A DNA stretch of 64,000 nucleotides, taken from the NCBI RefSeq assembly GCF_988243305.1, contig NZ_OZ547136.1, one strand, 5' to 3'. The number at the start of each line of letters is the position of its first letter. The first letter of the stretch is position 1. The notes beneath the pieces are model-generated. The model ran no database searches, was not told where the DNA came from, and saw only the letters and a program-made list of their open reading frames with translations. Below are positions 38,610-38,652 of this stretch, piece by piece. The translations under genes and the position numbers were made by a program.

Positions 38610-38652
38610 AAACGATCGATATCTATTTTATCGATCGTTTATATCGATCGAT
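38610..38652 (+). promoter_or_regulatory. agn43 phase-variation switch: three GATC Dam sites within the OxyR operator
   Basis: AACGATCGATATCTATTTTATCGATCGTTTATATCGATCGATAAG ~185 nt upstream of flu ATG; GATC at ~38614, 38633, 38646. Confidence 0.8.

Follow-up and report, generated by a model that had tools for sequence, protein, structure and literature searches.

The Dam/OxyR switch of agn43 in Escherichia coli K-12 is reportedly the subject of studies by Henderson and Owen in 1999, Haagmans and van der Woude in 2000, and Waldron and Wallecha, both in 2002. The switches of phage P22 gtr and Salmonella opvAB resemble that of agn43 in having GATC sites inside OxyR half-sites, but they carry four GATC sites located upstream of the promoter, as against the three sites at +1 to +36 at the locus described here. 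OxyR acts as an activator in opvAB, as both an activator and a repressor in gtr, and as a pure repressor in agn43, the regulation of which does not depend on whether OxyR is oxidized (PMC3350482). In pap, as in agn43, heritable methylation patterns result from Dam and a DNA-binding protein competing once the DNA has been replicated (PMC13337833), but the pap system uses Lrp and PapI, and its two GATC sites are located in two separate sets of binding sites with mutually exclusive occupancy. Binding of OxyR to the agn43 operator has been described in the K-12 literature (PMC13337833, PMC4872104), and K-12 agn43 switches at a rate of ~1e-3 to 1e-2 per cell per generation (PMC3764049, PMC4872104, PMC13337833).

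We analyzed a window of 64,000 nt (the whole stretch of DNA under study, from NCBI RefSeq assembly GCF_988243305.1, contig NZ_OZ547136.1) and found that the region around 38610-38652, the sequence of which is AAACGATCGATATCTATTTTATCGATCGTTTATATCGATCGAT, very probably represents the Dam/OxyR epigenetic switch that controls phase variation of agn43 (flu), along with the leader RNA of the gene, IsrC. Positions 38480-38860, which run from the last part of yeeP across the spacer into the beginning of flu, were aligned to MG1655 with one difference in 381 positions. The sole difference in the yeeP-flu spacer was located at 38618, which is G here and A in K-12, and none fell within the GATC sites. 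The alignment to the K-12 agn43 regulatory region, which the sequence-only reading had proposed as a check, was therefore in its favor, and the comparison supported that the locus is orthologous to the experimentally characterized K-12 region. As in K-12, the locus consists of a yeeP-flu spacer in a CP4-44-like island, with the same promoter hexamers, GATC spacing, leader and terminator, and encodes a 99% identical protein; besides the A at 38618, K-12 differs in having a yeeP pseudogene and an IS2 upstream. Every sequence-level feature that was tested among those defining the agn43 switch and the IsrC family was found at this locus (Table 1). As far as sequence can speak for the site, the identity with the K-12 locus is the decisive evidence. 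The switch is an already known, textbook system that was correctly recognized, and its recognition here has little significance beyond correct annotation.

Table 1 Positions of the agn43 switch, its leader and gene, and of RNA genes and elements elsewhere in the window.
Feature	Position	Strand	Remarks
OxyR operator (predicted) holding three Dam sites	38612-38648		Consensus scan 14/20; K-12 operator identical except 38618
Sigma-70 promoter agn43/isrC	38580-38608	+	-35 TTGTCC 38580-38585, 17-nt spacer, -10 TAGAAT 38603-38608; -10 invariant in 10 alleles
GATC-I	38614-38617		Methylatable A at 38615 (+), opposite 38616 (-); coincides with annotated 5' end of IsrC/agn43 transcript; invariant in 10 alleles
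GATC-II	38633-38636		Invariant in 10 alleles
GATC-III	38646-38649		Invariant in 10 alleles
IsrC (IS102) RNA	38614-38808	+	agn43 leader, from transcription start to end of terminator T-run
Intrinsic terminator in leader	38775-38808	+	12-bp stem (8 G-C) and 4-nt loop 38775-38802, then TTTTTT 38803-38808
Shine-Dalgarno AAGGA	38824-38828	+	7 nt before ATG; read from sequence
agn43 (flu), antigen 43 autotransporter adhesin	38836-41955	+	1039 aa, intact
tRNA-Asn (GTT)	16365-16440	-	Core 16368-16440, Rfam 72.6 bits
tRNA-Asn (GTT)	18189-18264	+	Core 18189-18261, Rfam 72.6 bits
tRNA-Asn (GTT)	20597-20672	+	Core 20597-20669, Rfam 72.6 bits
STnc240 sRNA	59230-59304	-	Rfam
Histidine operon leader	62042-62165	+	Rfam

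The sequence-only reading had described three GATC sites at the expected spacing, placed within an OxyR-operator-like sequence and ~185-225 nt upstream of the flu start codon, and all parts of this description were borne out. The sites start at 38614, 38633 and 38646, which are 222, 203 and 190 nt upstream of the flu ATG (38836), and their start-to-start distances of 19 and 13 nt are the same as in K-12 (GATC-N15-GATC-N9-GATC). An OxyR consensus of 37 nt, ATAGnTnnnAnCTAT-N7-ATAGnTnnnAnCTAT, with 20 scored positions, was used to scan the window, and the putative operator holding the three sites scored 14/20, which was the joint top among the ~64,000 window positions. The putative operator contained two internal dyads, CGATCGATAT/ATATCGATCG and TTATCGATCG/CGATCGATAA. 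A terminator-like hairpin on the minus strand, at 38640..38610, was considered and rejected, as it corresponds to the operator palindrome between GATC-I and GATC-II. A second and overlapping match to the OxyR consensus, also scoring 14/20, was found at 38634-38670, one 22-nt step downstream of the main match. This second match carries the 11-nt periodicity past GATC-III, and the part of it that reads GCTAATAATAAC is kept in agn43 alleles.

To describe the conservation of the locus, the yeeP-agn43 spacer was aligned across 10 alleles, among them cah, the calcium-binding Ag43 homologue of O157:H7, which together covered the full identity range in 5,426 complete E. coli genomes. The blocks that were invariant in the 10 alleles were TAGAATAAAACGATC, which contains the -10 hexamer and GATC-I, CGATCGTT, which contains GATC-II, ATATCGATC, which contains GATC-III, and TAAGGAAA, which contains the Shine-Dalgarno sequence. 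The stem of the terminator hairpin was also kept in all 10 alleles, apart from a single replacement of U.G by U-A. In contrast, the larger part of the leader and the sequence 5' of the promoter had diverged across the alleles and were unalignable in cah. Such conservation amid diverged flanks is what a functional operator and terminator would be expected to show, unlike neutral intergenic DNA. A mutation in any of the three GATC sites, which the sequence-only reading had named as grounds against a functional switch, was found neither in the comparison with MG1655 nor in that with the 10 alleles. The cah gene shares the -10 hexamer, the three GATC sites, the terminator and the Shine-Dalgarno sequence with the locus described here, but its operator-to-terminator leader and the region upstream of its -10 hexamer are unrelated, and it is without GCTAATAATAAC after GATC-III.

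The terminator and the Shine-Dalgarno sequence together form a module, which makes up the final 66 nt of the leader (38770-38835) and was found in ~4064 of the 5426 E. coli genomes, whereas most of the spacer was present in 1781, fewer than half as many. The module is common to cah and other genes of the Ag43/Cah family, including a cah gene on a Klebsiella IncF plasmid, which was the only convincing plasmid copy among those inspected. The matches of the whole region to records labelled as plasmids were rejected, being matches to Mb-sized records that are most likely mislabelled chromosomes.

The promoter shown in Table 1 was the only promoter-like site found in 38400-38950, and the K-12 catalogue of RpoD promoters obtained by genomic SELEX gives the same hexamers as a constitutive promoter between yeeP and isrC (PMC3946193). 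The Rfam model RF00124 (IS102, that is, IsrC) matched 38612-38815 over its full length (positions 1-206 of 206) with 253.5 bits and an E value of 3.4e-48, the gathering score being 46. The small RNA IsrC annotated in RefSeq for MG1655 (2071317-2071511, b4435), which is located between yeeP and flu, was placed by alignment at 38614-38808, with the same 5' and 3' ends. The presence of IsrC in the yeeP-flu intergenic region, which the sequence-only reading had given as reported for K-12, was confirmed by the full-length RF00124 match and by the MG1655 annotation at the equivalent coordinates. For the exact transcription start and OxyR footprint, the RefSeq isrC coordinates and secondary sources were followed. 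In this numbering, the GATC sites start at +1, +20 and +33 of the IsrC RNA and are located just 3' of the -10 hexamer, which means that the operator overlaps the transcription start and is not upstream of the promoter.

The leader had a predicted folding energy of -63 kcal/mol (z = -4.55), and the predicted fold contained a 5' hairpin, formed from the GATC-II/GATC-III palindrome, in addition to the terminator hairpin. Only one base pair of IsrC showed a change on both sides across the alleles, and covariation was almost absent outside the terminator. With covariation this weak, the IsrC structure is not established for parts other than the terminator and the 5' palindrome hairpin. The best reading of IsrC is that of an agn43 leader ended by premature termination, and not that of a separate gene; the gene annotated for the IsrC sRNA and the agn43 switch belong to a single transcription unit.

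The protein encoded downstream was identical to MG1655 Flu at 1030 of 1039 residues (99%), with no gaps, and contained the Pfam domains of an Ag43 autotransporter, namely the ESPR signal peptide, the AIDA repeats, the autochaperone domain AC_1 and the Autotransporter beta-domain. An alternative in-frame start at ATG 38680, which would give flu an N-terminal extension of 52 aa, was rejected because only K-12-like alleles keep its frame open, the other alleles having it closed or shifted, and because the extension crosses the terminator and the ESPR begins at the annotated Met.

A mechanism of the following kind, the OxyR and methylation steps of which are those described for K-12 (PMC3764049, PMC4872104, PMC13337833), can be proposed for this locus. 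The sigma-70 promoter would start transcription at or beside the G of GATC-I (38614), and the first ~36 transcribed bp would hold the three GATC sites inside the OxyR operator. In the OFF state the GATC sites would be unmethylated, and OxyR would bind, repress transcription and shield the sites from Dam. In the ON state Dam would reach the sites before OxyR while they are hemimethylated following replication, and once methylated they would exclude OxyR, leaving the promoter active. Either state would be inherited, and since the hemimethylated operator would be open to competition after replication, each would be heritable but reversible. The transcripts would either end at the terminator, giving the ~195-nt IsrC, or continue past it into agn43. 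By analogy with the K-12 experiments in the literature, binding by OxyR, dependence on methylation and switching are expected here, and phase variation of this copy is, by homology, the strongly favored expectation. The same behavior as in K-12 is favored because the operator is the K-12 operator with one base of the majority type and the gene is intact. Ag43 drives autoaggregation and biofilm formation, and in this strain it is very probably expressed in a heritable subpopulation only, which colony phenotyping or sequencing of the strain should allow for.

IsrC might instead be an sRNA in its own right and the main product of the locus, so that the switch would phase-vary an RNA regulator and Ag43 would be a read-through by-product. 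Such a role would agree with the strong terminator kept in every allele, with the annotation of IsrC as a small RNA in K-12, and with a dCas13a knock-down of IsrC that changed a metabolic phenotype through a mechanism stated as unknown (PMC10783499). However, IsrC is without a known trans target and is treated in the literature as a cis leader of flu (PMC5389530, PMC10783499). The poor conservation of the leader between operator and terminator in cah, and the covariation pattern described above, also argue against an independent RNA regulator, and we consider it quite improbable that IsrC is the main product. A regulatory IsrC would nevertheless be compatible with the agn43 switch and leader RNA that we favor, and the one does not exclude the other.

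For the favored agn43 switch, the difference from K-12 at 38618 was also considered. The base is located directly 3' of GATC-I, outside all GATC sites, at +5 of the transcript, and corresponds to an N in the OxyR consensus (register 38612). With G at this position, CGATCGATAT (38613-38622) and ATATCGATCG (38641-38650) form a perfect inverted repeat of 10 nt. G was found in 7 of the 10 aligned divergent alleles. Among complete E. coli records, 377 had the exact 71-nt core of the window as their best match and 487, many of which are laboratory derivatives of K-12, had the exact K-12 core. It is conceivable, though unlikely, that the +5 G, as the majority natural state, could give an OxyR affinity and switching rates measurably unlike those of the K-12 A allele. 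If this were true, K-12, whose A allele was used in nearly all experiments, would not be a typical reference for the phase variation of Ag43.

The same base enters into another possibility, namely that a switch intact in its sequence is nonetheless locked or strongly biased in this strain, either because the +5 G alters OxyR or Dam kinetics or because of the dam/oxyR background of the strain. The base is inside the operator, the perfect inverted repeat that it creates between the flanks of GATC-I and GATC-III could change OxyR affinity, and neither dam nor oxyR is located in the 64-kb window. However, G is the commoner base in the aligned alleles and belongs to the core matched in the 377 records, the position is one that the OxyR consensus leaves unspecified, and dam and oxyR are core genes of E. 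coli. A locked switch appears highly improbable, and a functional agn43 switch remains the favored reading.

The three-GATC cluster, with a span of 36 bp, was the tightest in the 64-kb window, followed by one of 50 bp. A triple at least as tight was present in 317 of 500 dinucleotide-preserving shuffles of the window (63%), and clustering by itself was consequently rejected as evidence. The exact K-12 spacing was obtained in 1 of 400 shuffles, and an OxyR-consensus match of at least 14/20 with three GATC sites inside was obtained in 2 of 400. That the three GATC sites are a chance cluster in AT-rich intergenic DNA without a regulatory role, as the frequency of tight triples and the G+C content of 26% in the region would permit, is hardly credible and already refuted by the conservation pattern, since the exact spacing is rarely reproduced, the sites are invariant where the flanks of the alleles have diverged beyond alignment, and the sequence is one base apart from the region shown experimentally to switch in K-12 (PMC4872104, PMC13337833). 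Over the whole window, GATC was under-represented, with 190 occurrences against 242 ± 14 expected, and all 100 dinucleotide-preserving shuffles had at least 190.

The matches to the histidine operon leader and to STnc240 indicated that the window adjoins the his operon, and the window is E. coli chromosome near that operon. Three tRNA-Asn genes were located within 4.3 kb, which fits the asn tRNA cluster region of E. coli. The gene names of the island were taken by homology from strain JE86-ST02 (98% coverage, 98.4% identity). The gene order of the island is that of the cryptic prophage CP4-44, less decayed than in K-12, and consists of a YfjI family protein, the YeeP GTPase, agn43, an 840-aa YeeR-like ORF, IrmA, DUF905, DUF932, an antirestriction protein, YeeS, YeeT, the CbeA/CbtA toxin-antitoxin pair and YeeW. 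The yeeP homologue (37597-38508) is an intact GTPase gene (MMR_HSR1), whereas yeeP is a pseudogene in K-12. The ORF that follows agn43 (42070-44592) had no Pfam match over its 840 aa; yeeR of K-12 (2074779-2076311) encodes ~510 aa. A group II intron was located at ~27900-29530, with an Rfam Intron_gpII match at 29442-29528 (+). Just upstream of this match, a reverse transcriptase/maturase gene, ltrA, was found inside a remnant of an IS3-family transposase, as judged by homology to JE86-ST02.

We also searched for the operator elsewhere. The region had no match among 50,697 phage records, and the GATC-II/III core was not found in any viral contig. The operator core GATCNATA-N8-ANCGATCGTTNATATCGATC was scanned in one genome per GTDB species, and the sole hit among these species representatives was in Raoultella ornithinolytica NBRC 105727 (NZ_BCYR01000007.1, 5054-6000). 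There, a cassette of ~50 bp (TGATAGTTTATAACGATCAATATATGCATTATCGATCGTTTATATCGATC), extending from a -10-like region through GATC-III, is embedded in otherwise unrelated sequence. By our own estimate, about 5e-4 matches to 25 specified bases would be expected by chance in the GTDB representative collection. The cassette may mark a new, uncharacterized Dam/OxyR phase-variable locus. It is located ~95 nt upstream of a 256-aa ORF that has hydrophobic N-terminal segments, is membrane-like and has no Pfam or NCBIfam match. Downstream of this ORF come a 118-aa ORF, whose hydrophobic N-terminus resembles a signal peptide by eye, and then a SLATT-SMODS gene pair.
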